50,794 bases of DNA from Actinomycetota bacterium (GCA_046728735.1 JBKPFG010000122.1:1-50794); one strand, 5' to 3'; shown: positions 20,178 through 41,034, numbered from the stretch's first letter. Notes: generated from the letters alone by a model not told the origin. Numbers and translations: made by a program.

Positions 20178-21298
20178 GGGACACCCAGGAAGGCTTGGGG
20201 CCGAAGCGGCTCGTGCTCGTGGTCGGGGGCGGGCGCGGCGCGAGTCTCCTCTCCGGCATCCTCGGCCGCTTGGGCTTCCACGTGCCCCAGCCGGAGGTCG
20301 GGGCCCGAGATACCGATCCACCTGGATTCGGCGAGCCGCGCTGGGTGGTCAGGTTCCACAGGCGGCTGCTGCGCGACCGAGGCGTGACCGTCTTCGATCC
20401 TCGCCCCTCCGCGTGGGAGAGCCTCGCCGCGCTGAGCGAGGACGAGCAGGTGATCGAGGAGCTGACGTCCTGGCTCGCGGTTCAGTTCGTCGGCTCGGAA
20501 GGAGTCGTGGTCAACGATTCGCGCAACGCCCGGTTCCTCCCGCTCTGGCGGCGCTGCGCGGACGGGCTCCGCGCGGAGAGCTCGTTCGCAACCCTGCTGC
20601 GCCACCCCGCTGGGGTCATCAGGAGCGCTCGCACCTCCTACGGCATCTGGCAGAGCGACGCGAGCAGAGCTGCAGCGTGGCTCAACGTCAACCTGCACGC
20701 CGAGCATTCCACGCGCGACTCCCGGCGTGCCTTCGTTCGCACGGAGGACCTGCTGGAGGACTGGGCGCGGGAGCTTTCTCGCTGCGGCGAGCTCCTGGAC
20801 GTTCCGTGGCTCGCCGGGGTCGACCCGGCCGACCATCCGGACGTGGAGGACCTCGTCGACCGCTCGGCCGGGCACTCCGCTCCGGACTGGGACCAGGTCG
20901 AGGTGCCCACCCCCTTGCAGGAGCTGTGTGAGGACGTCTGGGCGAAGCTCTGCGCGCTCGCCGCTCCGGGCGGTGACACGGGAGCGGCGCGGGAGGCGCT
21001 CGATGCTGCCCGTGCAGCACGCGGCGACCACCACGCCGAGGCGACGGCGCTACGGTCGCTCACGGCGGTGAGGCCACGCCTGGCAGCCGGGCCCTCACCC
21101 CAAGCGAACGGGCGCGGGCGAAGCGAGCCGCTGATGAAGCGGATCGTCCCGCTCGGCATGCGGGAGTCGTTACGGGCGAGTGACGGGCTTCCGGTGGCGG
21201 TGCGGCTGATGCTCCTCGTTCCCCTGCGTTACCGAGAGCGCATGCCGGTCCCCGCGGTGGACGCCGCGCGTCGAGTCGTGCGAGCCCTCCGGCGCTAG
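20174..21298 (+). CDS. Sulfotransferase-family paralogue with a degenerate PAPS-binding loop
   Basis: GTG 20174 overlaps the upstream stop as GTGA. The protein is colinear with 16145..17215 (LGFHVPQPEV, RFLPLWRRCA, ATLLRHPAGVI). However, the P-loop reads GGGRGASLL instead of GSGRSGTSVL, and KDPR is replaced by NDSR. Confidence 0.7.
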   Translation: MRDTQEGLGPKRLVLVVGGGRGASLLSGILGRLGFHVPQPEVGARDTDPPGFGEPRWVVRFHRRLLRDRGVTVFDPRPSAWESLAALSEDEQVIEELTSWLAVQFVGSEGVVVNDSRNARFLPLWRRCADGLRAESSFATLLRHPAGVIRSARTSYGIWQSDASRAAAWLNVNLHAEHSTRDSRRAFVRTEDLLEDWARELSRCGELLDVPWLAGVDPADHPDVEDLVDRSAGHSAPDWDQVEVPTPLQELCEDVWAKLCALAAPGGDTGAAREALDAARAARGDHHAEATALRSLTAVRPRLAAGPSPQANGRGRSEPLMKRIVPLGMRESLRASDGLPVAVRLMLLVPLRYRERMPVPAVDAARRVVRALRR

Positions 21299-24200
21299 TG
21301 ATGGCTCCGCGCGTCAGCGTCGTCGTCCCGATCTTCAACGTCGCGCCCTACCTCGAGGCCTGCCTGGAATCGCTCGCCGCCCAGACGGCCGGGGACCTCG
21401 AGGTCATCATGGTCGACGACGGCTCGACGGACGAGAGTCCCGTGATTGCGGAGCGGTTCGCAGCTCGAGACGGTCGCTTCCGGCTCGTTCGGCAGCCGAA
21501 CTCAGGTCTCGGCGCCGCACGAAACACCGGCGCCCGGCACGCGACCGGGGAGTTCCTCGCCTTCGTGGACAGCGACGACGTCGTGACCGCTAACGCGTAC
21601 GAGCTCCTCCTCGCCGCGCTCGAGGAGACCGGCTCCGATTTCGCCTCCGGCGCGGTCTTGCGCCTGACGGCCTTCGGGACCGCTTCGGTTCCGTTCCTCG
21701 CTCCTGCCTTCGAGCGCACGCGCCTGCGAACGCACATCACGCGCTTTCCCGCGCTGCGGGCCGACCGCACCGCCTGGAACAAGCTCTTCCGGCGGTCGTT
21801 CTGGGACCAACACGACCTGCGGTTTCCCGAAGGCGTTCTCTACGAGGACACCCCGACCACGCTCCCGGCTCACTACCTGGCCGGCACGGTCGACGTGATC
21901 GAGGAGCCCGTCTACCTCTGGCGGATGCGCGAGGGCGGCGACCTCTCGATCACCCAGCGTCGCACCGATCCGAAGTCGCTGCGAGATCGAGTCGCGGCCG
22001 TCGAGTACGTGAGCCGCTTCCTCGCAGACCGGAAGATGACGGTCTCCAAGGCGCTCTACGACCGCACCGTCCTCCGACACGACCTCCGCTTCTTCCTGGC
22101 GGTGCTGCCGAGCGCCGACGAGGAGTACCGGGAGCTCTTCCTCGAGCTCGTCAACGGCTTCCTCGACCGCGCGCATCCTTCCGCGATCGAACAGCTCTTC
22201 GCCATCGACCGCCTCAAGTGGCAGCTCGTCAGGCTGAGGGCGGTGCCGGAGCTCCTGGAGGTCATTCGATTCGAGATCGAGGAGCTTCCCGGGAAGCTTC
22301 CGCTTCGGAGCGGCAGACGATGGTACGGCGACTATCCCTACCGGGACGACCCCCGGCTCGCCATCCCGCAAAAGGTCTTCGAGCTCCGCGACGAGCTCGG
22401 ACCGATCGTTCGAATCGAACGGCTCGCGTGGGAGGGGGAGGAGCTTCGCATCGAGGGATACGCCTACATCGACATGCTCGGAGCGCCGGAGCCCGGATCC
22501 CGGAAGCTCGAGCTCGTCGCGAAGCACCTCGGCTGGCCGCCGAAGCGGATCCGTCTCCACACCGAGGAAGTCCATCGCCCGGACCTGACCGCGTCGAGCG
22601 CTCAGCAGCTCGTCTCGCTCGATTACGCAGGATTCGTGGCCACGCTCAACGGTGAAGGCCTCAAGCGCGGAGGCGCCTGGCGAGAAGGATCGTGGGAGCT
22701 TCGGGCTGCGATTTCCACCGAGGGGCTCGTGCGGAAGACCGAGCGGATCGATCGTGCCCCCTTGCACCCTGTCGTTCCCGCCGAGGTCGCCGATCGGGAC
22801 GGCGTCCGGGTGCGCGCGGCAGTCGGTTCTGCGGGAGAGCTCGGGATCCGGGTACGACGGCAGCGCTCGGCAGCATCCGCCGTTCGCCTGGCTGACGGCA
22901 TCGTCGAGCTCGAAGGGGAGCTCGCGCATGGGGGCGGGGGGAAGATGGCGCTCCACGTCCGCGGGCCGCAGTCGAGTCGCTCGTTCCCGGTTCACGTGGA
23001 CCGCTCCAGGCATCCGGCGAGGTTTCTCACCCGCGTGCCGGCGACCGAGCTCGGCGACGCGCGCGTCAGTCTTCACCTCGCCAACGGCCGCCGGCGTCTC
23101 CCGCTGCAGCTTCCCGAGGCGGCCACGAGGGCGATCGAGGGCCTCGGAGCTTCCGTGCTCCGGGACGCGACCTGGTCGTCCGCAGACAGGCTTCGCCTCA
23201 CTGTTCTGCTCTCGGGGACGAGCGAGAAGCAGGAGCTGTTGCTCGCCGGGCTCGGGACTCCGTGGCGCTACGTCGTGCCGCTCGTGCGCGAAGGTGAGAA
23301 CGCGATCGTCGACGTCGAGCTGACCCCCGGCGCCCTGGAGTCTCCGGGGGGTCCGCGACCGCTCGCCGAGGGCATGTACGAGTTGCTCCTCGGGCCGCCC
23401 GGATCGAGGCGAGAGGAGGCTACGCCTCTGGGGTTGGCGTCCTCGGTGCTCGAGCGGCTTCCCCTCTCGTCGCCAAACGGCCCCAGGCGCTTCCACCTCG
23501 GGGTTTCCGACGAAGGAGCGCTGGCCCTCGCCGTCGAGCGCGATCTCGAGGACGGCGAGCGGGGCGGATTCGCCCAGCGCCGACTGCGGACGTCGTTCTA
23601 TCCCGGGCGGCGCACGGAGGAGCTTCGTGACGCGGTTCTCTACGAGTGCTTCGGCGGCAGCGAGTACTCGGACAGCCCGCGCGCCCTCCACGAGGAGCTC
23701 GTCCGTAGGGGCGCCCCGCTGGAGCACCTCTGGGTCGTCCGTGACGGCGCGTTCGACGTGCCCGCGAGCGCGGTCCCGATCCGCGGGCAGAGCCGAGACT
23801 ACTACGAGGCGTACGCCCGGGCTCGCTATGTCGTGGCGAACGACCACTGGCAGCCATGGTGTCGACGACGCCCCGAGCAGGTCTGGCTCCAGGTCTGGCA
23901 CGGAGCTCCGCTCAAGTTGCAGGGAAGGGACCTGGAGGACCGGCCGCTCGCCGTCAAGGAGTACCGGCGAGCGATCGCCCAGGACCCGGAAAACTGGCAG
24001 TACGTCGTCTCGTCGGGCACTTTCGCGACGCCGATCCTCGAGTCGTCCTTCTCGCCCGCGGGTGAGATCGTCGAGACAGGGCTCCCGCGAACCGACCTCC
24101 TGCTGGCGCCCGAGCGGGAAGGGATGGCGGCCGAGGTGAGGCGGCGGCTCGGTCTGGGAGAGGAGACGGTGGTGCTGTATGCGCCCACCTATCGCGACGA

Positions 24201-24759
24201 TCTCGATTACGCCATCGGGTACAAGCCGGGCCTCGTCCGCGATCGGCCGACGTACCAGTCGGACAAGGCGTATCGCGACGGCTATCGCCTTGGATCCACG
24301 CTGGACGTCGCTGCTCTGGCCGCCGAGCTCGGCGAGGGGCACGCCGTGCTCTTCCACAAGCACGCTCGAGTCGCGGACTCGACCCCGATCCGGCTCGGGA
24401 AGGCGCGCGACGTCTCCTGGTATCCGGACGGCATGGAGCTTCTCCTCGTCGCCGACGTGTTCGTCACCGACTACTCCTCCTGGCTCTTCGACTTCGCGGC
24501 GACCGGTCGCCCGATCGTCCTCTTCGCCCCAGACCTCGAGCGATACCGCGACGAGGTTCGCGGGCTGCACGTCGACCTCGCGAGCGAAGCCCCCGGGCCT
24601 GTCGTGGCGACCACCGACGAGGTGATCGAGGCCGTGCGCGATGCCACAAGCGTACGCGCCCGGTTTCAGAAGCCGTATGAGGCGTTCGTCGCCGCCTACT
24701 GCGAGCTGGCGGACGGGCGGGCCTCCAGCCGGGTCGTCGAGCGGATCTTCGGCTTGTGA
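21298..24759 (+). CDS. Bifunctional GT2 glycosyltransferase / CDP-glycerol glycerophosphotransferase (TarF/TagF-like), 1153 aa
   Basis: The N-terminal GT2 domain is intact: VSVVVPIFNVAPYLEACLESL, VDDGSTDES and FVDSDD. A beta-rich middle region of about 430 aa is unassigned. The C-terminal Glyphos_transf blocks are LQVWHGAPLKLQG, VLYAPTYRDD and FVTDYSSWLFDFAATGRPIVLFAPD. The start is GTG 21298 or ATG 21301. Confidence 0.9.
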   Translation: MMAPRVSVVVPIFNVAPYLEACLESLAAQTAGDLEVIMVDDGSTDESPVIAERFAARDGRFRLVRQPNSGLGAARNTGARHATGEFLAFVDSDDVVTANAYELLLAALEETGSDFASGAVLRLTAFGTASVPFLAPAFERTRLRTHITRFPALRADRTAWNKLFRRSFWDQHDLRFPEGVLYEDTPTTLPAHYLAGTVDVIEEPVYLWRMREGGDLSITQRRTDPKSLRDRVAAVEYVSRFLADRKMTVSKALYDRTVLRHDLRFFLAVLPSADEEYRELFLELVNGFLDRAHPSAIEQLFAIDRLKWQLVRLRAVPELLEVIRFEIEELPGKLPLRSGRRWYGDYPYRDDPRLAIPQKVFELRDELGPIVRIERLAWEGEELRIEGYAYIDMLGAPEPGSRKLELVAKHLGWPPKRIRLHTEEVHRPDLTASSAQQLVSLDYAGFVATLNGEGLKRGGAWREGSWELRAAISTEGLVRKTERIDRAPLHPVVPAEVADRDGVRVRAAVGSAGELGIRVRRQRSAASAVRLADGIVELEGELAHGGGGKMALHVRGPQSSRSFPVHVDRSRHPARFLTRVPATELGDARVSLHLANGRRRLPLQLPEAATRAIEGLGASVLRDATWSSADRLRLTVLLSGTSEKQELLLAGLGTPWRYVVPLVREGENAIVDVELTPGALESPGGPRPLAEGMYELLLGPPGSRREEATPLGLASSVLERLPLSSPNGPRRFHLGVSDEGALALAVERDLEDGERGGFAQRRLRTSFYPGRRTEELRDAVLYECFGGSEYSDSPRALHEELVRRGAPLEHLWVVRDGAFDVPASAVPIRGQSRDYYEAYARARYVVANDHWQPWCRRRPEQVWLQVWHGAPLKLQGRDLEDRPLAVKEYRRAIAQDPENWQYVVSSGTFATPILESSFSPAGEIVETGLPRTDLLLAPEREGMAAEVRRRLGLGEETVVLYAPTYRDDLDYAIGYKPGLVRDRPTYQSDKAYRDGYRLGSTLDVAALAAELGEGHAVLFHKHARVADSTPIRLGKARDVSWYPDGMELLLVADVFVTDYSSWLFDFAATGRPIVLFAPDLERYRDEVRGLHVDLASEAPGPVVATTDEVIEAVRDATSVRARFQKPYEAFVAAYCELADGRASSRVVERIFGL

Positions 24760-24852: not shown

Positions 24853-25719
24853 ATGAACAGCAGGTCTGAAGTCACGGCCGGCGAACGCCGTCTTCCGGAA
24901 CCTCCCGTGGTCGACGTCTCGCTTCCAGCTGCAGCCGACGGAAAGCCCCTCGATGCCCTCGAGGACTTTCGCGCCCGCTATCCGGAGCACCAGTTCGCGC
25001 CGGTCGTCGTCGTCATCCCTGCGTTCAACGAGGAGGAGTCGATCGGGCCGGTCCTGGATGCCATTCCGAGCGAGGCCTGTGGCCTCACCGTCGACACCCT
25101 CGTCGTCGACGACGGGAGCAGCGACGAGACCGCGAAGGTGTCCTCGGCGCACGGCGTCTACGTTGCGACACTGCGCGAGAACTCCGGACAAGGAAGCGCT
25201 CTGCGGGTTGGCTACGAGCTGGCCCGCGAGCACGACGCGGCGTACATCGTCACGCTCGACGCGGATGGGCAATGGGATCCTGAGGTCATCCCCCTCGTGC
25301 TCGAGCCGGTCATCTCGGGGGAGGCGGACTTCGTGCTCGGGTCGCGAGTGCTCGGCCGCGCCGAGACTGACGACTCGTTCCGTCAGGCGGGAGTGCGGGT
25401 GTTCGCCATGCTCGCCAGCCTGCTCACGGGCGTGCGCGTGACCGACACCTCGAGCGGCGTGCGCGCTCTGCGTGCGGAAGTCACCGCGACCGTGAGGCAG
25501 GAGGAGGCGCAGTACCAGGCCTCCGAGCTCCTCGTCGGCGCGATCCTCCAGGGGTACCGCATCGTCGAGCGCCCGGTGGTCATGCGCAAGCGCACCGCGG
25601 GCGAGAGCAAGAAGGGTCACAACGTGTTGTACGGCTTCCGCTACGCGCGCGTGATGCTCCGCACGTGGTGGAGAGAGCGCGGCGCCCGGGACCGCGCGGC
25701 CCGCCCGCCCGCGAATTAG
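24853..25719 (+). CDS. GT2 glycosyltransferase, DPM1/GtrB-like (putative polyprenyl-phosphate glycosyltransferase), soluble type
   Basis: ATG start. Blocks present are VVVIPAFNEEESIGPVL, VVDDGSSDET, TLDADGQ and VTDTSSGVRAL. It follows one of the few real intergenic gaps (93 nt), which carries an AT-rich TATACT. Confidence 0.85.
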   Translation: MNSRSEVTAGERRLPEPPVVDVSLPAAADGKPLDALEDFRARYPEHQFAPVVVVIPAFNEEESIGPVLDAIPSEACGLTVDTLVVDDGSSDETAKVSSAHGVYVATLRENSGQGSALRVGYELAREHDAAYIVTLDADGQWDPEVIPLVLEPVISGEADFVLGSRVLGRAETDDSFRQAGVRVFAMLASLLTGVRVTDTSSGVRALRAEVTATVRQEEAQYQASELLVGAILQGYRIVERPVVMRKRTAGESKKGHNVLYGFRYARVMLRTWWRERGARDRAARPPAN

Positions 25720-25781: not shown

Positions 25782-27242
25782 GTGTCCGTGACGACGAGGC
25801 CCGACGCGCCCACCGCCGTCGACCACCCGAACGCGGGCCGGCGACGGGAAGCTCGCTTCTTGACCGCGGCTCTGGAGCTCCTGAGACGGCACTGGGCCAT
25901 CGCGGCCGTCCTCCTGGCCGGCCTCGTCGTCCGTGTGCTCGTCGTGCTCACCTACAACCCGTTCTTCTGGTTCACGGACACGCCCGGGTACCTGAAGGGG
26001 GCCGAGATCCTCAAGCCGAACGGCACGCGGCCGTGGGGCTACTCGGCTTTCCTCCTGGTTTTCCAGCATCTTGGACTCAGCCTGCGCGAGATCGTGGTCC
26101 TCCAGCACCTTCTCGTCCTCGGCCTCGGAGTGTTGCTCTACGCGTTCCTCGTCCATCGGGGAGTCGCTCGCTGGCTCGCGGCGCTGGCGATCGTTCCACT
26201 GGCGCTGTCGCCCCTGATCGTGAACATCGAGCACCACCTGCTCTCGGATCCTCTCTTCATCATCCTCTACGCGGGTGCAGCGGTCACGCTGGCCTGGTCG
26301 GACACGCGGCCGGGGACGTACATCTGTGCGCTCGGAGGGTTTCTGGCCGCCTCCGCCGCCATCACCCGCCAGGTGGCCCTCGTCATGGCGCTCCTGCTGG
26401 TGGCGTATCTCCTCGTGCGACGCGTCGGAGCCGTTCGAGTCGCCGCCTTCGTCGTCGCATTCGCGATCCCCGTCACCGCCTACCTCTTCTGGATGCACGA
26501 GACCTGGGGGGTCTGGTCGTTCTCGACCTGGCGGGGGAAGCATCTCTACGCGCGGGTGGCGCCCATCGCTCAATGCGACCGCCTGGGGACCCTCACCGCC
26601 CAGGAACGGCTGCTCTGCGACCCGCGTCCCCTCGACGAGCGGCCCGGGCCGGAGGGTTACCTCTGGGTCGGCGAGGACGCGCCGGCCCGTTCGCTCCCGG
26701 ACAAGGTCGATCTGGCCTTCGCCCGCAAGGTGATCCTCCACCAGCCGCTGGACTATCTCCGGATGATCGGGACGGACGCGAGCCAGCTCTTCTATCCGGG
26801 CCAGCGCCAACGTCGGGGGGAGCCGTGCGTCGCGTACTGGGCCTATCCGGACCCGCTGCCGCGCGGCTGCCGCACCGACGCAGTGGGCAAGAAGATCTGG
26901 GCGACCCATCCGTTCCGGACGAACGAGAGCCTGAGCCCGCTCCTGCGGAGGTACCAGCGCACCGACTATCCGGTCGGCCCCCTGTTTCTCTTCTGCCTGC
27001 TCGTCACGGCGGTCGCTCTTCTCTGGCGCATACAGGAACCGGGCTGGCGGCTTCGCCTCGATGCCGCGTTGTTCGCCGTCTACGGGTTCGGCGTGATCCT
27101 GGCGTCGATCGCGACGGCCAACTTCAGCTATCGCTACAGCGTCCCGCTCTATGCCACCCTCCCGATCGCCGCGGCCCTTGCGGTGACGCATCTCCTGTCC
27201 TTGCGCCGCCGGACGGCCGAGCCTCGGGGGGAGTCCGCGTGA
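25782..27242 (+). CDS. Polytopic membrane protein, GT-C-like; paralogue of 14687..16144
   Basis: It shares YNPFFWFTDTPGYL, LQHLLVLGLGVLLYAFLV, a Cys pair in IAQCDRLGTLTAQERLLCDP, and the C-terminal WRLRLDAALFA...FSYRYS with the 14687 gene. The start is GTG 25782 or GTG 25788 (GGAG 8 nt upstream). Confidence 0.7.
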   Translation: MSVTTRPDAPTAVDHPNAGRRREARFLTAALELLRRHWAIAAVLLAGLVVRVLVVLTYNPFFWFTDTPGYLKGAEILKPNGTRPWGYSAFLLVFQHLGLSLREIVVLQHLLVLGLGVLLYAFLVHRGVARWLAALAIVPLALSPLIVNIEHHLLSDPLFIILYAGAAVTLAWSDTRPGTYICALGGFLAASAAITRQVALVMALLLVAYLLVRRVGAVRVAAFVVAFAIPVTAYLFWMHETWGVWSFSTWRGKHLYARVAPIAQCDRLGTLTAQERLLCDPRPLDERPGPEGYLWVGEDAPARSLPDKVDLAFARKVILHQPLDYLRMIGTDASQLFYPGQRQRRGEPCVAYWAYPDPLPRGCRTDAVGKKIWATHPFRTNESLSPLLRRYQRTDYPVGPLFLFCLLVTAVALLWRIQEPGWRLRLDAALFAVYGFGVILASIATANFSYRYSVPLYATLPIAAALAVTHLLSLRRRTAEPRGESA

Positions 27243-28465
27243 GCCGGCTCGAGGTCACCGTTCTCCTCCCTTGCCTCGACGAAGCCGAGACGGTGGGAGC
27301 GTGCGTGGAGAAAGCGCTCGGGTCCCTTCGCGAGCTCGGGGTGGAGGGAGAGGTCCTGGTCTCGGACAACGGCAGCACCGACGGCTCCCAGGAGATCGCC
27401 CGCCGGAGCGGAGCCCGTGTCATCTCCGCGCCGGAGCGGGGCTACGGAGCAGCGCTGCTCGCGGGGATCGAAGACGCCCGCGGCCGCTATGTGATCATGG
27501 CCGATGCCGACGACAGCTACGACCTGGCGAGCCTCGGCCCCTTCGTGGGGGCGCTCAGAGAAGGCCACGACGTCGTGATGGGAAACCGGTTTCGGGGCGG
27601 GATCTCCGAGGGCGCGATGCCCTGGTTGCACAGGTATCTCGGCAATCCGGTGCTCTCATGGCTCGGCCGCAAGCTCTTCGGGCTGAAAGAGGTCGGAGAC
27701 TTCCACTGCGGCATTCGCGGCTTCGACCGCCGGCGGATTCTCGCACTCGACCTCTCGATGCCCGGCATGGAGTTCGCGAGCGAGCTGGTCGTGCGGGCGG
27801 CTCTCGCCGGGTACGACATCGCGGAGGTTCCGACGACCCTGCGTCCGGCCGGCAGAACCCGTCCTTCACACCTGCGAACGTGGCGCGACGGGTGGCGGCA
27901 TCTGCGCTTCCTGCTCGTCTTCGCGCCGGCGAAGACGCTGATCTATCCCGGGGCCGCCCTCGCGGCGATCGGCCTCGTGGGCTCGGTCCTGCTTGCCATC
28001 GGACCGAGGTCGATCGGCAGCCTCACGTTCGACATCAACGCACTCGCCTACGCGTGCATCGGCGTTCTCGTCGGCGTCCAGATGATGCTCCTCGGCGGCC
28101 TCGCGACCCTCTACGGGAGCGCACACGGAATGGCGCCCGGCCGCGGCCTCAAACCTCTCCTCGCCACACTCCGCTTCGAGACGGCCGCCCTCATCGGGCT
28201 CGTGGCCATCGTGGTCGGCCTGGGAGGGTCGGTGGCCGCCATCTTCAACTGGGGGTCCGTGGGCTTCGGCGAGCTCGATCCCCGCGGGACGATTCGAATC
28301 GTGCTGCCTTCGGCGACTCTCGTCGCGCTCGGTGCGCTCTGGATCTTCACGGGGCTCGCGGGGAGCCTCATCACTCTCGGCCGGCCGACGCGTCGTACTG
28401 CCCCGCCCGGTGCACGATCTTCGGCCGCCGAGGATCCAAGCGACGAGCTCGTAGAGCAGCGGTAA
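27239..28465 (+). CDS. GT2 glycosyltransferase with C-terminal transmembrane domain (GtrB/ArnC/CsbB-like polyprenyl-phosphate glycosyltransferase)
   Basis: GTG 27239 overlaps the upstream stop as GTGA. Blocks present are VTVLLPCLDEAETVGACV, VSDNGSTDGS and MADADDSYD. About 4 TM helices follow (LIYPGAALAAIGLVGSVLLAIG...). Confidence 0.85.
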   Translation: MSRLEVTVLLPCLDEAETVGACVEKALGSLRELGVEGEVLVSDNGSTDGSQEIARRSGARVISAPERGYGAALLAGIEDARGRYVIMADADDSYDLASLGPFVGALREGHDVVMGNRFRGGISEGAMPWLHRYLGNPVLSWLGRKLFGLKEVGDFHCGIRGFDRRRILALDLSMPGMEFASELVVRAALAGYDIAEVPTTLRPAGRTRPSHLRTWRDGWRHLRFLLVFAPAKTLIYPGAALAAIGLVGSVLLAIGPRSIGSLTFDINALAYACIGVLVGVQMMLLGGLATLYGSAHGMAPGRGLKPLLATLRFETAALIGLVAIVVGLGGSVAAIFNWGSVGFGELDPRGTIRIVLPSATLVALGALWIFTGLAGSLITLGRPTRRTAPPGARSSAAEDPSDELVEQR

Positions 28466-28476: not shown

Positions 28477-30456
28477 TTGGCTGCGAGTCGACTCCGTGTC
28501 GCGCTCGACGTTGCGAGCGACTGCGCCGTTCTCTGGTTCGCGGTGTGGACGCTCGCCGCGTATCTGGGGATGCTGACGGACGCTCGGGTCCCCCTGCTTG
28601 TCGCCCTCTGGCTGGGGGGTTCGATCCTCGCCACGGCGGCCCTCCTCGTCCGGCGCCGCCGGTCTGCCTCCGAGCGGAGCGAAACCGTGCCTCCGGCCGG
28701 CACACCTGGTGTCCTCGGCCGCTGGCTCCCGTGGCTCGCCGCCGTCGGTGTCGCCTCCGGATTGGCGGCCGGAGTTCTCGCCGCGGCCTCACCGCCCGTG
28801 AGATGGTCGATCGCCTCGCTTGCGACCCTCGTCGCGGTCGGCTGCCTGGTTGTGGCCGGACGGTTCCGCTCGCGGGCCGCGGATCCGCCGGAGGTCGAGC
28901 GGGACGGACGCAACGCCGACCTGCTGGCGTTCGGCGTCGCGCTCGGGTTCGCGGTGCTGTCGCTCGTGATCCGCAGGGGGAACCCCGACGACGTCTTCTA
29001 CGTCAATCGCGCGACCGCGGTAGCGCAGCTCGATCGAATCCCCGTTCTCGACGTCATCTTCACTCACGAGGAGGCTCCACGCGGCGGCGGGGCCGGGCTC
29101 CCCGTGGACAGCTATTCGGCCCTTCAAGGCGCCGTGGCGCACGTCGTCGGCGTCCAGGCCCCCTCGGTGGCGTACTACGTCTTTCCGCCGCTGTTCACCT
29201 TCCTGGCCATCTGGAGCCTCTGGCGGTTGCTGCGCGCCTGGGCGCCTCAGCGGGCACTCCTCTGCTTCGCGCTCGGCTCGGCCTTCTGGCTCTTCAGCGC
29301 GCAGGCGCAGTTGAGCTCCGGCAATTACTTCCTCACACGGATCCAGCAGGGGAAGGTCGCCTTCGTGGTCTGGCTCGTGCCGACGATCTACGTCTACCTG
29401 ACCAAATGGCTGGAGGGACGAGACCTCGTCACCGGCGCGCTCTTGATCGCTGCCGGGATCGGCGCGATCGGCATGACCGGGTCAGCGACCTTCGCGGCCC
29501 CGCTCGTCTTCCTCACGGCGTTGATCGCACTCGTCGCCTGCAAGGACTGGCGCGGGCTCCCCGCACCTCTCGTCGCCGGCGCAATCCCGCTGGTCATCGG
29601 GGCCGTCGTCCTCTCGCGATTCCCGCTCTCGAAGACGGTGGGAGTCGGTCCGATGCCCGGCAATTCGTGGTTCTACCACCAGCTCTTCGGCTTCGGCTTC
29701 GTCTGCGCCGTGGCCGGGACAGCCGTCTGGCTCGCCCCCTGGCTGGCGCGACCCGGACCGCCCGCGAGGCTCGCGAGCGGGATCGCCGTCGTCACCGCCC
29801 TGCTCCTGGCGCCGGGCGTCCTCAGCCTGCTGCACGACGTCTCCGGGCTCACTGAGACTCTCCGCCGAACGCTGTGGCTGATTCCGATCCCGACCGTCGT
29901 GGGACTGCTCGCCGCGGCGCCGATCCCTCGACGGTTCGGCCGTGTTGCCCCAGCGGCGGCGACGGCCGTCGTAGCTTGCCTGCTCATCGCATTCGGCCAT
30001 CCGCTGTGGCGCTCGAGCTCCGGCGTGGAGCTCTGGGACTTCCCTCCGGCGTGGAAGGTCAGCAAGTCGCGCATGTCTACCGCGCGTGCGCTCCTGGCCC
30101 GCTATGACGGGAGCGGGCCTATCCTCGCGCGCAAGGGAATCATGCAGATGATCGCCGTCGTGACCATTGAGCCGAAGGCGGTGAACGCACGGACCCTCTA
30201 CCTCATCCGCACCCGCGAGCCGCAGACGCTGACGACGGAGCGCCTCACGCTGACCGCGTTCGTGACGGGCCTGGAGCCCATGCCCGCGGACAGCGCCGTT
30301 CGAGAGGCGCTCGCAGATCTTCGGGTGGGACTCGTTTGCCTCGCGAAGACGCGTCCGGACCTCAGTGCGCGCTTCCAAGCGTTCGCTCCTTATCGCAAGA
30401 GCTTCTCGACGCATGGGCAGGTCTGCTACGTGCCCCGAGCGAGCGTGACGGGCTAG
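28477..30456 (+). CDS. Large polytopic membrane protein (about 659 aa) with a DDVFYVNRA loop motif; tandem paralogue A
   Basis: TTG 28477 lies 3 nt after an AGAGGGGGAA Shine-Dalgarno-like run. There are more than 12 hydrophobic segments plus a C-terminal soluble domain of about 140 aa. It is colinear with 30464..32449. I recognise no named family. Confidence 0.75.
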   Translation: MAASRLRVALDVASDCAVLWFAVWTLAAYLGMLTDARVPLLVALWLGGSILATAALLVRRRRSASERSETVPPAGTPGVLGRWLPWLAAVGVASGLAAGVLAAASPPVRWSIASLATLVAVGCLVVAGRFRSRAADPPEVERDGRNADLLAFGVALGFAVLSLVIRRGNPDDVFYVNRATAVAQLDRIPVLDVIFTHEEAPRGGGAGLPVDSYSALQGAVAHVVGVQAPSVAYYVFPPLFTFLAIWSLWRLLRAWAPQRALLCFALGSAFWLFSAQAQLSSGNYFLTRIQQGKVAFVVWLVPTIYVYLTKWLEGRDLVTGALLIAAGIGAIGMTGSATFAAPLVFLTALIALVACKDWRGLPAPLVAGAIPLVIGAVVLSRFPLSKTVGVGPMPGNSWFYHQLFGFGFVCAVAGTAVWLAPWLARPGPPARLASGIAVVTALLLAPGVLSLLHDVSGLTETLRRTLWLIPIPTVVGLLAAAPIPRRFGRVAPAAATAVVACLLIAFGHPLWRSSSGVELWDFPPAWKVSKSRMSTARALLARYDGSGPILARKGIMQMIAVVTIEPKAVNARTLYLIRTREPQTLTTERLTLTAFVTGLEPMPADSAVREALADLRVGLVCLAKTRPDLSARFQAFAPYRKSFSTHGQVCYVPRASVTG

Positions 30457-30463
30457 CTCGCTC

Positions 30464-32449
30464 GTGTCGGCCAGCCTGCTCCGGCGAACCCTCGACTTCG
30501 TAAGCGATTGGGCGGTGCTGGCCTTCGCGGCCTGGACGTTGATCGCCTACGTGGGAATGGCCACGCACGCCCGCGTGAGCCTCATGACGGTCGCCTTTCT
30601 CATCATCGTGCCGATCGTCGGTTGCTGCTTGTTCGCGCTCGGTCGCCGCGCCCCGGCGGCCACGGAAAAGGTCGAGCGCGAGGAGGCTCCCCGACCACGC
30701 CGTGCGCTGCCGCTCTGGGGGGTCGCCGGAGGCTTGACCTCCGCCGTGCTCACGGCGGCCGCGCCCGGCCTCCCTTGGCCGGTTCTGTGGCTTCCGGCTC
30801 TCGCAGGAGTCGGGCTGGCGGTCGCCGACGGTCGCTTGCGCCTCGCGGAGCAGGCCTGGACGGAGAGCGTCAGCGGCTGGGCGGCGGACCTCGTCGCGGC
30901 CGGCGGCGGCGTGGTCTTCTCGGTGATGTCGCTCTTCATCAACGACCAGAACGCGGACGACGTCTTCTATGTCAACCGAGCGACCGCGACCGCGCAGCTC
31001 AACCACATCCCGGTCCGCGACGTGATCTTCACCGATGAGCGCGCGTCCCGGCTCGGAGGCACGGGGCTGCCCGTCGAGGCTTACGCGGCGCTCGAGGGCG
31101 CCATCGGACGCCTGTTCGGCGTCCACGCCGCCTCGATCGCGTACTACGTCAGCCCTCCGGTGATGACGTTTCTCGCCACGTGGGCGCTCTGGCGACTCCT
31201 GCGGTCCTGGGCCCCCGCCCGGGCGCTCGTCTGCTTCGCCCTCGCCTGTGTCTTCCTCGTGTGGAGCGCTCAGGTCGACCTGAGCGCCGGCCACTTCTTC
31301 CTGACCCGCCTCTGGCAGGGGAAGGTCGTCTTCGTCGCCTGGCTGGTTCCCACGCTCTACGCCTATCTGACGCGCTGGTTGGGACGGCGGGAAGCGCTGA
31401 CGGGGGTCTTGCTCGTCGGGTCCGGTGTCTGCAGCATTGGTCTCACGAGCTCGGCGACGTTCGTCGTGCCCCTCATGGTCGCCGCTGCGGCCCTTCCCCT
31501 GCTCGCCGCGAGGCGCTGGCGCGGGTTCCCCGTGCTCGCGGCGACGGCCGGCGTTCCGTTCGTGATCGGCTTCGTCGCCACGCGGACGCATCCGCTGGGC
31601 GATCGGTTCCCAGGCGGGGTGCTGCCGACCGAGTGGTACTACCAGGCGATGTTCGGCGCCGGGGTCGTGAGTGTCATCGCCGCGGCAGCTCTCTGGTCGG
31701 CGCCCTGGCTCGCCCGTGCGGGCCCGGCGCGGGCGGTCACGACGGGGATCGCGATCATCGCGGTCGTCCTGCTGGCCCCGTACGTCTTCCGGGGGCTGAG
31801 CGAGGTCTCGGGGCTGACGGGGAGCCGCGCCCTGCGCAGAGCGCTCTGGGTGATCCCCTTCCCGCCGCTCGTGGGCCTGCTCGGGGCCGTTCCGGTGCTG
31901 ACGCTCGTCGAGCGTCTGAGACCCGTGCCGGCAAGGCTGCGCCCCGCGGCCGCTCTCGCACCGGCCCTGCTCGTCGCGGTGGCGCTCGTGGCCTTCGGGG
32001 CGCCGCTCTGGGCGGGAGACGCCCACTGGGAGTCGCGGCCCACCTGGAAGACGAATCAAGCCGCGTTGCGCACGGGGCGGGCGATCCTCGCCCGCTACGA
32101 CGGTGCGGGCCCTGTCCTCGCCGACCAACGAGTGATGAAGGCGATCGCGTTGCTCACGGTCGAGCCGAAGGCGGTCAACCCGCGCACCTGGTATGCGCTG
32201 CTGACGAAGGAGCCCCCCGAGCGGACGAAGGAGCGTCTTGCCCTGACCCGCCTCGTCATGGAGCCGGACGACCCGCCGCCCGCCGCGGAGGTTCGCGCCG
32301 CCCTCGCCGCTCTCCGAGTCGGGCTCGTCTGTGTCCCCGAGCAGCACACGAGCATCGTGGACACGGTGGAGCAGGCCGGCTACGAGGAGGTCTTTCGGGT
32401 CCGCAGGCAGGTGTGCCTCGCACGGACGGCGGGAGTACCTGCTTCGTAA
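30464..32449 (+). CDS. Large polytopic membrane protein (661 aa) with a DDVFYVNRA loop motif; tandem paralogue B
   Basis: GTG start 7 nt after the stop of paralogue A. It shares DDVFYVNRATA.AQL..IPV.DVIFT, FFLTR.QGKV.FV.WLVPT.Y.YLT.WL and ARYDG.GP.LA...M..IA..T.EPKAVN.RT.Y with paralogue A. Confidence 0.8.
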   Translation: MSASLLRRTLDFVSDWAVLAFAAWTLIAYVGMATHARVSLMTVAFLIIVPIVGCCLFALGRRAPAATEKVEREEAPRPRRALPLWGVAGGLTSAVLTAAAPGLPWPVLWLPALAGVGLAVADGRLRLAEQAWTESVSGWAADLVAAGGGVVFSVMSLFINDQNADDVFYVNRATATAQLNHIPVRDVIFTDERASRLGGTGLPVEAYAALEGAIGRLFGVHAASIAYYVSPPVMTFLATWALWRLLRSWAPARALVCFALACVFLVWSAQVDLSAGHFFLTRLWQGKVVFVAWLVPTLYAYLTRWLGRREALTGVLLVGSGVCSIGLTSSATFVVPLMVAAAALPLLAARRWRGFPVLAATAGVPFVIGFVATRTHPLGDRFPGGVLPTEWYYQAMFGAGVVSVIAAAALWSAPWLARAGPARAVTTGIAIIAVVLLAPYVFRGLSEVSGLTGSRALRRALWVIPFPPLVGLLGAVPVLTLVERLRPVPARLRPAAALAPALLVAVALVAFGAPLWAGDAHWESRPTWKTNQAALRTGRAILARYDGAGPVLADQRVMKAIALLTVEPKAVNPRTWYALLTKEPPERTKERLALTRLVMEPDDPPPAAEVRAALAALRVGLVCVPEQHTSIVDTVEQAGYEEVFRVRRQVCLARTAGVPAS

Positions 32450-32473
32450 CGGCTTTGGTACTATCGAACGCCT

Positions 32474-32497
32474 GCGCGCTAGCGCGCCATTTTTCTT
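32474..32497 (+). terminator. Candidate intrinsic terminator: GC hairpin within a 14-nt perfect palindrome, followed by a T-run
   Basis: GCGCGCTAGCGCGC (32474-32487) is self-complementary (5-bp GC stem, 4-nt loop). It is followed by cATTTTTCTT in an otherwise very GC-rich region, 25 nt after the stop of 30464..32449. The stem is short, so confidence is low. Confidence 0.3.
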
Positions 32498-32521: not shown

Positions 32522-33790
32522 GTGCGCGTTCTGATCTTGGGTGGAGACGGGTTCTGCGGGTGGCCGACGTCGCTGCATCTGTCGCAACGCGACCACGACG
32601 TTCTCATCGTCGACAACTTCGCTCGCCGCAACGCGGACACCGAGCTCGAGGCCTCCTCGCTCACCCCGATCGCGCCGCTCGGCATTCGCCTCCGCGCGTG
32701 GCAGGAGCTCACGGGCCGTGAGATCGGCTTCGAGCGCCTGAACGTCGCCGAGGACTACCACCAGCTCCTCGATCTCGTCGCCCGCTGGAAGCCGGATGCG
32801 GTCGTGCACTTCGCGGAGCAGCGCGCGGCGCCGTACTCGATGAAGAGTTCCTGGCACAAGCGCTACACGGTCGACAACAACGTCAACGCGACGCACAACC
32901 TGCTCGCCGCGCTCGCCGAGTCGGGCGTGGACGCGCACGTCGTGCACCTGGGCACGATGGGCGTCTACGGGTACGGCGCGGCGCCCGGCGTGAAGATTCC
33001 CGAGGGCTACCTGGGCGTGAAGATCGAGGCGGACGACGGCACCGACATCGAGCAGGAGATCCTCTTCCCTGCGAACCCGGGCAGCGTCTACCACATGACG
33101 AAGACGCTCGACCAGCTTCTCTTCGCCTACTACAACAAGAACGACGAGGTGCGGGTCACCGACCTCCACCAGGGGATCGTCTGGGGCACGCAGACCGAGG
33201 AGACCCGCCTCGACGAGCGTCTGATCAACCGCTTCGACTACGACGGAGACTACGGGACCGTCCTGAACCGCTTCCTCATGCAGGCGGCGATCGGCTACCC
33301 GCTCACCGTCCACGGCACGGGGCGGCAGACGCGGGCGTTCATCCACATCCAGGACAGCGTTCGCTGCATCCAGCTCGCCGTCGAGAACCCGCCGGCACAC
33401 GGCGAGCGGGTCCGGATCTTCAACCAGATGACCGAGACACATCGCCTGATCGATCTCGCCGAGCTCGTGTCCCGGCTCACCGGCGCGCAGATCGACTTCG
33501 TCGAGAATCCGCGCAACGAGGCGCCGGAGAACGATCTCTTCGTCGAGAACCGCCAGCTCCTCGACCTCGGGCTCGTGCCGATCACGCTAGAGGAGGGCCT
33601 TTTGAACGAGGTCGCCGAGATCGCGCAGACGTATGCGCATCGCTGTGACCGCGACAAGATCCCGGCCCGGTCTCTCTGGCGTCCCGTCCAGCGTGAGGGC
33701 GAGCGAGCGGGGCAGCCCGTCTACAGCGCGAACGGCGACTCTGGCGAGGACCAGGTCGTCATCGACGAGCGCTACCCGGTCTCCTCGTAG
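32522..33790 (+). CDS. sqdB: UDP-sulfoquinovose synthase (SQD1 / SqdB / Agl3 family SDR)
   Basis: GTG start 6 nt after AGAGGGG. SQD1-type blocks are present. These are MRVLILGGDGFCGWPT, LIVDNFARR, SLTPI, VVHFAEQRAAPYSM, VVHLGTMGVYGY, SVYHMTKTLD (YxxxK) and the long insertion typical of this family. Ordinary 4-epimerases lack them. Confidence 0.8.
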   Translation: MRVLILGGDGFCGWPTSLHLSQRDHDVLIVDNFARRNADTELEASSLTPIAPLGIRLRAWQELTGREIGFERLNVAEDYHQLLDLVARWKPDAVVHFAEQRAAPYSMKSSWHKRYTVDNNVNATHNLLAALAESGVDAHVVHLGTMGVYGYGAAPGVKIPEGYLGVKIEADDGTDIEQEILFPANPGSVYHMTKTLDQLLFAYYNKNDEVRVTDLHQGIVWGTQTEETRLDERLINRFDYDGDYGTVLNRFLMQAAIGYPLTVHGTGRQTRAFIHIQDSVRCIQLAVENPPAHGERVRIFNQMTETHRLIDLAELVSRLTGAQIDFVENPRNEAPENDLFVENRQLLDLGLVPITLEEGLLNEVAEIAQTYAHRCDRDKIPARSLWRPVQREGERAGQPVYSANGDSGEDQVVIDERYPVSS

Positions 33791-37890: not shown

Positions 37891-39345
37891 GTGAGGGAGG
37901 AGCGCACGATCCTCACGGGCACGGCCGTCAACGTCGTCGGCCTGGTCGTCGGCGTGTTCGCCGCGCTCGGCGTTCAGATCCTCCTCGGACACGCGCTCGA
38001 GCCAGGCGCGTTCGGCCTCGTCACGGTCGCGGTGCAGGTCGCCTTCGTCGCCTCGGCGGGGAGCCGCTTCGGCATGGACATGGCCGCGGTGCGTCTCGTC
38101 GCCATCGGGCGCGGAGCGAGCAGCGTCGACAACCTCAGGAGCCTCGTCGAGCGCTGCGCCCTGGTCGCGGTCGCGGCCAGCGTGGTCGTGGCGGCGCTCC
38201 TGGCCGCCTCCGCGCCGCTCTACGACGGGTACACGCGGGTGATCGCACTGGCCTCCTTGAGCGTGCCCTTCATCGCCGTGACCAACGTCTATCTGGGGGC
38301 GACCCGCGGGCTCGGGCAGATGCGCCAGACGCTCTACGTGTTCTGGATCGGCCAGCCCGTCGTCTGGATCGCGGTTGCGGCGGCGGCCGTCGCCGTGGGC
38401 GGAGCGACCGATGCGGCGGTCCTCTCCTACGACTGCTCGTGGATCGCGGCGGCGGTGGCGGCGCGAGCGCTCTGGCGGCGGGAGGCAGCGCCGTACAGCG
38501 GGCGCGCCGCAAGCCGTGAGGAGGTGCGAGGCGCCCTCCGCTACGGGCTGCCGAGAGCGCCGGCCGCATTGCTCGCCCAGGCCGTCTTCTGGGCCGACCT
38601 CTGGGTGCTGGCGGCCTTCGAGCACGGCAACGAACTGGACGCCTACTCCGCGGCGGCTCGCATCTCGCAGGTGCTCCTCCTCTTCCTCACTTCGCTCAGC
38701 CTCGTCTTCTCGCCCTTCGCGGCCGACCTCCACGCGCGCGGGGAGCGTCAGCGTCTGGACGAGCTCTTCAAGCGCAGCACACGCTGGGCGCTGACGGCCA
38801 CGCTCCCGCTTCTGATCGTGCTCTTCGTGGCGGCCGACGACGTTCTGCATGCGTTCTCGGCCAGGTTCGAGATCGGCGAGAACGCGCTGCGCATCCTCCT
38901 GCTCGGGCAGACGGTCAACGTCGCCACCGGAAGCGTCGGGTTCATCCTCATCATGACCGGCTTCACCGGCGTCGACCTCATCGACAACGCGCTCGGGATC
39001 GCGCTCCTGGTCGGCCTCGCTGCCGCGCTGACGGCGGCGTTCGGGATCGAAGGGACGGCGACCGCCTCGGCCGTCAGCGTCGCCGGACTGAACGTGCTGC
39101 GCCTCTTCCAGGTGCGCCGCCGCATCGGGATCCAGCCGTACGACCGCACCTACGCCGGGCTCGTCGTACCCGCCGCCGCAGCGGCCCTTGCCGCGCTCGG
39201 GGCGCACGCGGCGCTCGCGGAAGAGTCGTGGCTGTTCTCGCTTGCCGCCACGTCCGCCTGCGGGCTCATTGCCTACGTCGCGCTGCTGCCGCTCGCCCTG
39301 CCGGCCGAGGAGCGGGCGGTCCTGCGGGCGAAGCTCCCCGCCTAG
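37891..39345 (+). CDS. Polysaccharide/oligosaccharide flippase, MOP superfamily (Wzx / Polysacc_synt-like)
   Basis: GTG lies 8 nt after AGGAGG. The protein is 484 aa with about 12-14 TM segments. The N-terminal pattern TGTAVNVVGLVVGVFAALGVQILLGHAL...FGLVTVAVQV is typical of Wzx-type flippases. Confidence 0.8.
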   Translation: MREERTILTGTAVNVVGLVVGVFAALGVQILLGHALEPGAFGLVTVAVQVAFVASAGSRFGMDMAAVRLVAIGRGASSVDNLRSLVERCALVAVAASVVVAALLAASAPLYDGYTRVIALASLSVPFIAVTNVYLGATRGLGQMRQTLYVFWIGQPVVWIAVAAAAVAVGGATDAAVLSYDCSWIAAAVAARALWRREAAPYSGRAASREEVRGALRYGLPRAPAALLAQAVFWADLWVLAAFEHGNELDAYSAAARISQVLLLFLTSLSLVFSPFAADLHARGERQRLDELFKRSTRWALTATLPLLIVLFVAADDVLHAFSARFEIGENALRILLLGQTVNVATGSVGFILIMTGFTGVDLIDNALGIALLVGLAAALTAAFGIEGTATASAVSVAGLNVLRLFQVRRRIGIQPYDRTYAGLVVPAAAAALAALGAHAALAEESWLFSLAATSACGLIAYVALLPLALPAEERAVLRAKLPA

Positions 39346-40166
39346 ACGTCCTCGAGGGCGACCTCGCTCTCGCCGACGTCGAGGAACCTCGTGTACGCCT
39401 CGATCACGGGCTCCGGCTCGTCACGCATCCTGATCCGACCCTGATGGAGCCAGACGACCTCCGTGCAGAGGTCGCCGATGCTCTTGAGCGCATGGCTCAC
39501 GATCATGATCGCCTGCGCCTGGTCGCAGAGCTCCTGGATCTTCTCGAAGCACTTGTGCTTGAAGCGGGCGTCGCCGACCGAGAGCGCTTCGTCGATGAGG
39601 AGGATGTCGGGGTCTGCATGCACCGCGACCGAGAAGGCGAGGCGGCCGTACATGCCGGACGAATAGGAGCGCATCGGCAGCTCCATGAAGTCGCCCAGCT
39701 CGGCGAACTCAGCGATCTCCTCGTACTTCGCCTCGATCTGCTCGCGCGTCAACCCGGCGGCGAGCCCACCGAGGACGACGTTGTCGCGGCCGGTCAGGTC
39801 GGCGTTGAAGCCGACGCCGAGCGCGAGCAGCGTGCTCACGCGGCCCCAGACCTCGATGCGCCCCTCGGTGGGAGGGAGAATGCCGGCGACCGCTCTCATG
39901 AGCGTGGACTTGCCGGCGCCGTTGACGCCGACGATCCCGAGGATCTCTCGCGGCGGCACCTCGAAGCTCACGTCGCGGAGCGCGTGGACCTCCCGCACGC
40001 TCCGCTCGCGCCGGCCGAGACGAATCAGCGCCTTCTTCAGCGTCGGCTTCTTCTCGTAGGTCGTGCGGTAGGAGACCGAGAGCTGGTCGACCTTGACCGC
40101 GAAGTCGCCGTATACGTCACCGTTGGTCGCGGCGATTGCGCTCTCAGATGCGGACGGCAAACTCAC
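39342..40166 (-). CDS. ABC transporter ATP-binding protein, polysaccharide/teichoic-acid export type (TagH/Wzt/KpsT-like)
   Basis: Walker A is GVNGAGKSTL, the signature is YSSGMYGRLAFS, and Walker B is ILLIDEALSVGD. The stop overlaps the flippase stop in a shared CTAG. Confidence 0.9.
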   Translation of the reverse strand: MSLPSASESAIAATNGDVYGDFAVKVDQLSVSYRTTYEKKPTLKKALIRLGRRERSVREVHALRDVSFEVPPREILGIVGVNGAGKSTLMRAVAGILPPTEGRIEVWGRVSTLLALGVGFNADLTGRDNVVLGGLAAGLTREQIEAKYEEIAEFAELGDFMELPMRSYSSGMYGRLAFSVAVHADPDILLIDEALSVGDARFKHKCFEKIQELCDQAQAIMIVSHALKSIGDLCTEVVWLHQGRIRMRDEPEPVIEAYTRFLDVGESEVALEDV

Positions 40167-41034
40167 GCTCCCTCGAGATGAAGATGAGAGCTCCGACGAG
40201 AAACGTCACGACCGCACCGGCCACTCCCCAGAGCATGTAGCCCGCATTCGGGTTTTGTCCCTGGTTGACGACGTCGCTCAACGAGGCGATGAGTGGAAAC
40301 AGCGGGTTCACGGCCATGAGCGGCTTGAACTTGTCCGGGACCTCGCTCGCGAAGTAGAGCACCGGCGAGAGGTAGAGCCAGATGCGGGTGAAGTAGGGAA
40401 GGAAGTTGGCGAAGTCGCGGAAGTAGACCTGAGCCGTGGCTGCGAGCATGGCGGCGCCGGCCGCGAAGACGACGAGCAGCGCGAGGATCGGAATCGTCCA
40501 GAGCAGATGCCAGCCGACCGGGAGACCGGCGATAGCGTGAACGCAGGCGTACACGATGATCGTCGGCACGAACTGCGCGAACGAGGTGAGCACCGACGAG
40601 AGCGGGAGAAGGGTGCGCGGAAAGGCGGTGTTGAGGATGAGGCGCCCGCCTCGTACGACGGAGCGGGCACCCTGGGAGAACGACGTGCTGACCAGCCGGA
40701 ACGCGAAGAGACCCAGCATGAGATGGGCGAGAAAGCCGATCCCTCGGCTTCCTCCCCCGATGATGTAGACGAGGATGAAGTAGACGAGCCCGAGGAGAAG
40801 CGGGTTGACGACGAGCCACAGCTGGCCGAGCGCGGTGTTGTAGTGCTGAACCCGGAGGTTCGCCTTCGCCAGCTCGTACGCCAGATGGCGGCGCTCCCAG
40901 AACGTGCGCAGGTATGCGCCCATGGGCGGCAAGCCGATGGGGTGGGGCTCGTAAACGTGCCGCTCGGGCAGCGTCCCGCCGGCATCGGCCGGTGTCGCGG
41001 CGGGCTGCTCGCGTGAAAGGCTCGGCGCTTCCAA
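40144..41034 (-). CDS. ABC-2 type transporter permease (TagG/Wzm-like)
   Basis: The protein has six TM segments. ABC-2 blocks are present (YNTALGQLWLVVNPLLL, and the FRDFANFLPYFTRIWLYLSPVLY region). It lies upstream of, and overlaps, the ATPase gene. Confidence 0.85.
   Translation of the reverse strand: MEAPSLSREQPAATPADAGGTLPERHVYEPHPIGLPPMGAYLRTFWERRHLAYELAKANLRVQHYNTALGQLWLVVNPLLLGLVYFILVYIIGGGSRGIGFLAHLMLGLFAFRLVSTSFSQGARSVVRGGRLILNTAFPRTLLPLSSVLTSFAQFVPTIIVYACVHAIAGLPVGWHLLWTIPILALLVVFAAGAAMLAATAQVYFRDFANFLPYFTRIWLYLSPVLYFASEVPDKFKPLMAVNPLFPLIASLSDVVNQGQNPNAGYMLWGVAGAVVTFLVGALIFISREREFAVRI

Follow-up and report, generated by a model that had tools for sequence, protein, structure and literature searches.

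The stretch of DNA analysed in this work (the window, 50,794 nucleotides (nt) from an Actinomycetota bacterium, GCA_046728735.1 JBKPFG010000122.1) holds at positions 28477-32449 two adjacent genes, here called A and B, whose products are many-helix membrane proteins predicted to have the GT-C fold of membrane glycosyltransferases. Gene A (28477-30456, + strand, 659 amino acids) starts with TTG, with GAGGGGG lying 5-11 nt upstream, and begins 11 nt past the stop of the preceding gene; gene B (30464-32449, + strand, 661 amino acids) starts with GTG and is separated from A by a spacer of 7 nt (30457-30463). The initial annotation, made from the sequence alone, had described them as adjacent paralogues colinear over their whole length, and this is what the translations and BLASTP show, with 314/672 identities (47%, E 2e-170) from end to end. 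Its estimate of 50-60% identity in the core was also fair, as the membrane core measures 52%; the four N-terminal helices (38%) and the C-terminal domain (44%) are less alike, and the first long outside loop reaches 63%. Both proteins carry the identical string DDVFYVNRATA, a putative catalytic aspartate pair at the start of that loop, at 28987-29019 in A (+ strand, residues 171-181) and at 30956-30988 in B (+ strand, residues 165-175, the pair being D165/D166); the string and its place in A had been given correctly, whilst its place in B had been given one base off. The G+C content of the window (about 69%) and its strong preference for G+C at third positions are those of a typical actinobacterium, and the stretch finds matches in soil metagenomes only.

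Although both proteins had been considered members of no recognised family, they pass the gathering cut-off (27 bits) of the Pfam family DUF6077 (PF19554), A with 46.1 and B with 85.5 bits, the match covering roughly residues 20-375. No NCBIfam family matched A or B, a literature search on DUF6077 and PF19554 found no papers, and a wider one for surveys of GT-C domains of unknown function gave nothing relevant. Public data contain about 1,700 clusters of the family at the 50% identity level: a word-indexed search found 181 relatives, with PF19554 carried by all 120 listed, and exhaustive searching by profile yielded 1,715 representative clusters at E <=0.001, 368 of them at E <=1e-30. Reference genomes with DUF6077 belong to Actinomadura, Spirillospora, Nocardioides, Tetrasphaera, Jatrophihabitans, Aeromicrobium, Rhizomonospora, Gaiellaceae and uncultured Actinomycetes, and their loci are always single-copy for this gene (52 species loci). 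The closest of them has a DUF6077 protein only 52% identical, which leaves the organism of the window without a close reference. Cluster members are named at source solely 'hypothetical protein', 'DUF6077' or 'MFS family permease' (MFS, major facilitator superfamily); the last label, carried by P0026, P0033, P0035, P0053 and P0070, finds no support in profile or fold comparison.

B was modelled with AlphaFold2 from an alignment of 98 sequences, and the model reached a predicted local distance difference test (pLDDT) of 91.8 and a predicted template-modelling score (pTM) of 0.93. When this model was compared with the PDB by Foldseek, ranks 1-17 were all taken by GT-C enzymes (probability 0.93-1.00, template-modelling score (TM-score) 0.28-0.46) and rank 19 by another EmbB, the matches including AftA, yeast and human STT3, archaeal AglB, EmbA/EmbB and AftB, with AftA 8if8 at the top (E 1.4e-5, TM-score 0.42-0.46). 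The first match outside this class was a CLC channel (probability 0.08, TM-score 0.09), and all transporter and channel matches (MFS, LeuT, CLC, MATE) stayed at noise level, with probability <=0.10 and TM-scores of 0.08-0.12. The same PDB entries are given as diagnostic matches for teichoic-acid GT-C enzymes in a review (PMC8035078). The modelled structure of B thus supports GT-C as its fold class, in line with the kind of enzyme first guessed, and the transporter fold named at that time as the opposite outcome was not seen.

The helices of the model read as 15 transmembrane helices, four of them N-terminal and accessory (residues 5-34, 38-62, 82-99 and 105-121) and the other 11 forming a core that begins with 139-158, in agreement with the more than 12 hydrophobic segments noticed earlier in each protein; a crude hydropathy scan agrees on many segments. 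Many distant DUF6077 members can be aligned only from about residue 145 on, which fits an accessory role of the four N-terminal helices. D165/D166 directly precede the short first helix of the loop (166-179), and 27 residues separate this helix from the second one (207-218). With four accessory helices ahead of the core, the motif is read here as following the fifth helix and not the first; the initial annotation had put it after the first cluster of helices. The soluble C-terminal domain, previously put at about 140 amino acids, appears in the model as an alpha/beta domain of 150 (residues 512-661, 31997-32449, + strand, with C623 and C651 kept) and in the hydropathy scan as a tail of 141-148. 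Lysine and arginine in the short loops of B number 22 in 102 residues on the predicted inside versus 9 in 118 on the outside, a bias that suggests that the N-terminus lies inside, and that both the DD loop and the soluble domain lie outside. By this positive-inside count, the DD motif is predicted to face outwards, as the initial annotation had expected.

The conservation of the DD pair in orthologues, named at the outset as a check, was borne out. In a close set of 98 relatives (45-82% identity) D165 is found in 98/98 and D166 in 97/98, and in a diverse set of 128 members (median identity 30%, minimum 24%) each is found in 99%. In this diverse set D186, G286 and K287 are present in 100%, R459 in 98% and R282 in 94%, whilst C623 and C651 never vary among the close relatives and are kept in at least 90% of the diverse set. 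Across the family the motif reads D-D-[VAT]-[YF]-Y-V-N-[RLK]-[SA], and there is a second motif, R-x-W-Q-G-K. The basic residues R282/K287 and R459 are candidate binders of lipid phosphate, and C623/C651 could form a disulfide. All 25 positions conserved in at least 90% of the diverse members are kept by both A and B, so neither copy is degenerate, and the early suggestion of a transferase with a degenerate partner loses its ground.

The two genes are not the product of a recent tandem duplication, which was considered and rejected: in a neighbour-joining tree the A clade has 100/100 and the B clade 95/100 bootstraps, and A and B were never sisters (monophyletic in 0/100). The tree neighbours of A are single-copy genes (e.g., L003, L005, P0039) and those of B are P0012, P0014 and P0021, and orthologues within each subfamily are 65-79% identical for the A-type and 68-82% for the B-type. 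There are 83 positions fixed differently between the two clades; the outside loops and the C-terminal domain together account for 42 of these and the inside loops for 0, and this concentration in outside parts fits a difference in substrate. A and B probably add different sugars, or modify different positions. In some relatives the pair is followed by a third large (658 amino acids) membrane-protein gene (L060 12089-14065, L057 4679-6655), which was rejected as a DUF6077 relative, with no Pfam match on record and no BLASTP similarity to B (the copy of L060).

The genes upstream of the pair suggest where the sugars might come from. A glycosyltransferase family 2 (GT2) protein with a C-terminal membrane domain (GtrB/AglJ-like, 408 amino acids, 27239-28465, + strand, matched by the Pfam GT2 family) is a candidate synthase of polyprenyl-phosphate sugars. 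The gene begins with a GTG that overlaps the stop codon of the one before it. In NCBIfam the protein is matched best by polyprenyl- or dolichyl-phosphate glycosyltransferases without exception, each under its cut-off, and its orthologues carry PF26629 (GT2_TM_C). A soluble GT2 (Dpm1/PpgS-like, 288 amino acids, 24853-25719, + strand, Pfam and NCBIfam matches) is the second candidate synthase. Between the two lies a 484-amino-acid polytopic protein (25788-27242, + strand), a PMT_2/ArnT-like third GT-C candidate of the row judging from the domains of its homologues: the window copy is without a Pfam match, and PF13231 or PF02366 is present in the homologues, which are often proteins of 740-790 amino acids with a GT2 fused at the N-terminus. 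In many relatives the soluble GT2 and the 484-amino-acid protein are one fused protein. Three metagenome contigs (L053, L054, L055) share this gene order, namely GT2, PMT_2-like, membrane-domain GT2, A, B and SQD1-like.

A survey of 10 related contigs, the window included, shows which of the two DUF6077 genes the membrane-domain GT2 accompanies. GT2_TM_C is present in 7/7 contigs with a B-type gene, namely those with both A and B (the window, L053, L054, L055 and L060) and those with B only (L056 and L058), and in 0/3 with an A-related gene only (L003, L005 and L059). In L061 (P0018) no such GT2 adjoins the DUF6077 gene, but this gene falls outside the close B clade. The proposal that both transferases are served by the GT2 immediately upstream was thus right as to the presence of GT2 genes of polyprenyl-phosphate type in the same row, and too simple otherwise, as the adjacent GT2 tracks B, the more distant gene, and not A. 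In the related contigs the A-type is accompanied by the other, soluble GT2 and by a PMT_2-like GT-C gene. Going by this co-occurrence, the membrane-domain GT2 probably feeds B, and the soluble one probably feeds the PMT_2-like enzyme, and A.

The remainder of the row has the character of a TagF/ABC-transporter cluster for a polymer. The genes at 18285-24759 (+ strand) are those of a poly(polyol phosphate) backbone, i.e., a TagF-like gene (630 amino acids), an unassigned gene of 374 amino acids and a GT2-TagF fusion (1153 amino acids), with Pfam Glyphos_transf scores of 379.5 and 281.3 bits. An ABC transporter pair (ATPase and ABC-2 permease, TagGH-like, 39342-41034, - strand) for polymer export is syntenic in L001-L005 and L053-L055, and a MOP-family (Polysacc_synt/MatE) membrane protein (37891-39345, + strand) is a candidate flippase for lipid-linked sugar or repeat units, no GtrA-type flippase having been found among the window genes scanned. 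The row also holds a Wzy_C protein, a glycosyltransferase family 4 protein, two sulfotransferases, a methyltransferase and, directly downstream of B, an SQD1-like enzyme, together with a second epimerase. Further away in the family, TagF-like genes lie near distant DUF6077 members in Actinomadura, Spirillospora and Nocardioides, a TarI/TarJ-like gene for CDP-ribitol synthesis lies near the Tetrasphaera copy and ABC-2 exporters lie near others. Given this context, the acceptor is most likely a teichoic-acid-like polymer made by the TagF-type enzymes of the cluster and exported by its ABC transporter.

Taking fold, conservation, predicted topology and gene context together, and by analogy with solved GT-C enzymes, it seems likely that A and B are two catalytically competent GT-C-fold glycosyltransferases of the so far uncharacterised family DUF6077, which add sugar to a teichoic-acid-like polymer. 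In such a scheme, a cytoplasmic GT2 would transfer a sugar from a nucleotide sugar to polyprenyl phosphate, and the lipid-linked sugar would be flipped to the outer face of the membrane. There it would be bound by the DUF6077 core, with R282/K287 and R459 possibly holding the phosphate; the first aspartate of the DD pair would activate the acceptor hydroxyl, and the outside C-terminal domain might cover the site and help to choose the acceptor. The polymer, of the poly(polyol phosphate) type, would this way be decorated after its export.

The closest model for such an enzyme is AftA (GT85, the priming arabinofuranosyltransferase of Mycobacterium tuberculosis, 8IF8), a homodimer with two accessory helices and an 11-helix core, where the catalytic Asp128 stands at the start of a first long loop made up of two helices that cross, the loop helix bears a conserved Arg and a periplasmic alpha/beta domain stands over the active site (PMC10265970). 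B resembles it in having accessory helices, an 11-helix core, an aspartate at the start of a two-helix outside loop, a conserved Arg on the loop helix and an outside alpha/beta C-terminal domain. It differs in having four accessory helices instead of two, in the motif, which is DDxFYxN(R) in A and B as opposed to D128xxxR132 in AftA, and in sequence, with 14-15% identity in the structural alignment and no AftA chain found by the DUF6077 profile among PDB sequences (E <=10). Moreover, Pfam scans of the window found no genes for decaprenyl-phospho-arabinose or another pentofuranose donor, the linked synthases being GT2 proteins.

The arabinosyltransferases EmbA/EmbB (GT53) also share features with the pair, being tandem paralogous GT-C genes matched by Foldseek (7bvf, 7bx8, 6x0o) with accessory helices before the core, so that the catalytic aspartate falls on a later loop; they are, however, larger (about 1,040-1,090 amino acids, with large carbohydrate-binding domains), only 13-14% identical in the Foldseek alignments, and searching the PDB sequences with the DUF6077 profile gave no Emb chain. 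As to the system as a whole, the logic is that of the Firmicute teichoic-acid systems (CsbB/GtlA, GtcA and YfhO/GtlB), where a GT2 makes a C55-P-sugar, a flippase turns it over and a GT-C enzyme with a (modified) DxD in an outside loop decorates the exported polymer (PMC8035078); the TagF-type and ABC-exporter context and the diagnostic PDB matches (6EZN_F, 6S7T_A, 3WAJ) are the same here. This likeness is one of system logic only, as no YfhO Pfam match was found at E <=1, 15 helices are predicted as opposed to 8-13 in the Firmicute enzymes (PMC8035078), the MOP-family protein is the sole flippase candidate in the absence of a GtrA-type one among the window genes scanned, and the phylum is Actinomycetota. 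The three-component GT136 system of the Citrobacter youngae O antigen (PMC11127046) likewise modifies an ABC-route polymer after polymerisation by means of a GT-C enzyme, and its cluster also encodes a flippase of the MATE/MOP type and auxiliary epimerases, but the donor there, polyprenyl-phosphoribofuranose, comes from a synthase dependent on phosphoribosyl pyrophosphate, as opposed to the GT2 synthases found here.

Several results weigh against this interpretation. The best TM-scores, 0.4-0.46, are below 0.5, and the search of all PDB sequences with the DUF6077 profile (E <=10) found no characterised GT-C enzyme, only one chance match, YodM (E 0.29). The family also stands apart in sequence from the PMT, PMT_2 and ArnT-like enzymes (GT39, GT83): the PMT, PMT_2, STT3 and YfhO Pfam models had no match to A or B at E <=1, and hhalign of DUF6077 with the PMT_2-like family of the same locus gave a probability of 4.4%. 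D165/D166 are equated with the catalytic aspartates of AftA, PglB and ArnT through their position in the predicted secondary structure, and not by superposition. The C-terminal domain, modelled alone (pLDDT 85.3), yields weak Foldseek matches, none of them reaching E 0.001; the best are outer domains of GT-C enzymes, namely the C-terminal domain of AglB-S2 (E 0.05, probability 0.82), the luminal part of DPY19 (TM-score 0.47-0.51) and ArnT. The pairing rule comes from 10 contigs of closely related organisms, and a GT2 of polyprenyl-phosphate type lies within 10 kb in 16/52 species loci only and a TagF-like gene in 9/52, which makes the acceptor assignment dependent on the lineage.

A refinement of the same interpretation would have A and B working as an obligate heterodimer, jointly on one polymer, as in the tandem pairs EmbA-EmbB or Pmt1-Pmt2. 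The spacing of 7 nt in one operon-like row and the A-then-B order kept in L053, L054, L055 and L060 agree with it, as does the dimeric state of the closest structural relatives (the AftA homodimer and EmbA-EmbB, 7bvf), the more so as accessory N-terminal helices are the dimer interface in AftA (PMC10265970). Yet B-type genes stand alone in L056 and L058, A-related ones stand alone in L003, L005 and L059, and all 52 species loci are single-copy; since singletons of each type exist, a partner is not required, and obligate pairing seems rather unlikely, even if it is the best placed of the alternatives.

Somewhat less likely again is a different acceptor for the same enzymes, be it secreted or membrane proteins, in the manner of PMT-like O-glycosylation, or a membrane glycolipid or lipoglycan. 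The nearest folds do include enzymes of protein glycosylation (STT3, AglB) and of lipid-linked glycans (AftA, AftB, Emb), for most Actinomadura loci no TagF gene lies nearer than 10 kb, and two CDP-alcohol phosphatidyltransferase genes are found in the window. Against this, TagF-like or TarIJ-like genes and ABC-2 exporters recur beside DUF6077 in several distant genera, no acceptor-protein gene is evident, and the locus already has a separate PMT_2-like enzyme.

That one of the two proteins should be a catalytically dead partner, acting as a scaffold or regulator, is very improbable: it has the general precedent of degenerate tandem paralogues in its favour and no result of this work, whereas the DD pair, D186, R282, G286, K287, R459 and all other positions conserved in at least 90% of members are kept by both, and also by the orthologues of both clades (65-82% identity). 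Least credible of all is that A and B are transporters, as the 'MFS family permease' names in some JGI records and the many-helix architecture might suggest, for the transporter matches of Foldseek are at noise level, no MFS Pfam model matches A or B at E <=1, and a conserved outside acidic motif with an outside soluble domain is typical of GT-C enzymes.

Two active GT-C transferases decorating a teichoic-acid-like polymer thus remain the preferred interpretation, and DUF6077 would be a new family-level member of the GT-C kind. This would provide a testable function for a Pfam family of unknown function with its roughly 1,700 clusters, and would correct the permease labels of some of its members. 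Multi-component extracytoplasmic glycosylation, as established for Firmicutes, mycobacteria and enterobacteria, would also be extended to the poorly known Actinomycetota of soil and to cultured genera, Actinomadura and Nocardioides among them. In addition, the locus, where three candidate GT-C enzymes share a row with two synthases of lipid-linked sugars, offers a compact system for the study of donor and acceptor specificity among paralogues.

One possible source of the donor sugar lies directly downstream of B, where a gene of 422 amino acids (32522-33790, + strand) encodes an SQD1-like UDP-sulfoquinovose synthase. It aligns end to end with Arabidopsis SQD1 (1qrr, E 2.4e-90, the next PDB family being at 1e-14) and matches NCBIfam NF041015 at E 4.8e-102, below the cut-off of that family. 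The gene is syntenic in related contigs and 82-90% identical across related genomes whose DUF6077 genes are about 50% identical; an enzyme of this kind is unusual for a teichoic-acid-type cluster of an actinobacterium. Judging from these matches, a sulfoquinovose donor is possible, and with so conserved a neighbour a sulfonated wall glycan becomes conceivable. It is hard to refrain from the speculation, which we hold to be a long shot, that the SQD1-like enzyme makes UDP-sulfoquinovose, that one of the GT2 proteins loads it onto the lipid carrier and that A or B attaches the sulfonated sugar to the wall polymer outside the membrane. If so, these would be the first GT-C transferases with a polyprenyl-phosphate-sulfoquinovose donor, and their product a sulfonate-decorated anionic wall polymer, of which we know no description in bacteria. 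Two Sulfotransfer_3 genes lie in the same cluster (12422-13453, + strand, and 16148-17431, - strand), and the DUF6077 genes of L059 and L061 likewise have sulfatase and sulfotransferase genes at their sides; taken with SQD1, these genes point to sulfated or sulfonated glycans. Between B and the SQD1-like start, 24 nt past the stop of B, there is a GC-rich hairpin (GCGCGC-TAGC-GCGC, followed by CATTTTTCTT, at 32473-32496, + strand), which is terminator-like in a genome of 70% G+C, such sites being within chance in this region (3 found versus 4.7 expected).

Other genes of the window and of related loci deserve mention. The GT2-TagF fusion (21298-24759, + strand, 1,153 amino acids), with an N-terminal GT2 and a C-terminal TagF-type glycerophosphotransferase domain, is kept as proteins of 1,144-1,146 amino acids in L054, L055, L056 and L060, and has counterparts of 33-35% identity beside DUF6077 in Actinomadura and Spirillospora loci. 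Two divergent genes of the type I phosphodiesterase/nucleotide pyrophosphatase family (PF01663, 34917-37859) are also kept in related contigs; their reading frames overlap at the 5′ ends, and the start of the one on the minus strand is probably further in, as the relatives have 454-459 amino acids. At 41929-45581 (- strand), an Fe-ADH_2 protein (about 42680-43735) lies between two CDP-alcohol phosphatidyltransferase genes; these match archaetidylinositol- or phosphatidylinositol-phosphate synthases best, and a DUF5941 domain is also present in one of them. The Fe-ADH_2 family includes glycerol-1-phosphate dehydrogenases, and these three genes may be the source of an unusual head group (polyol-phosphate) or lipid anchor. 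Finally, LPG_synthase_TM (PF03706) membrane proteins are found directly downstream of the DUF6077 gene in Tetrasphaera and Jatrophihabitantaceae loci (L021 11964-12974, - strand, and L006 12005-13096, - strand), L006 also having a DUF6541 membrane protein upstream, and both kinds of protein may be further components of the same systems.

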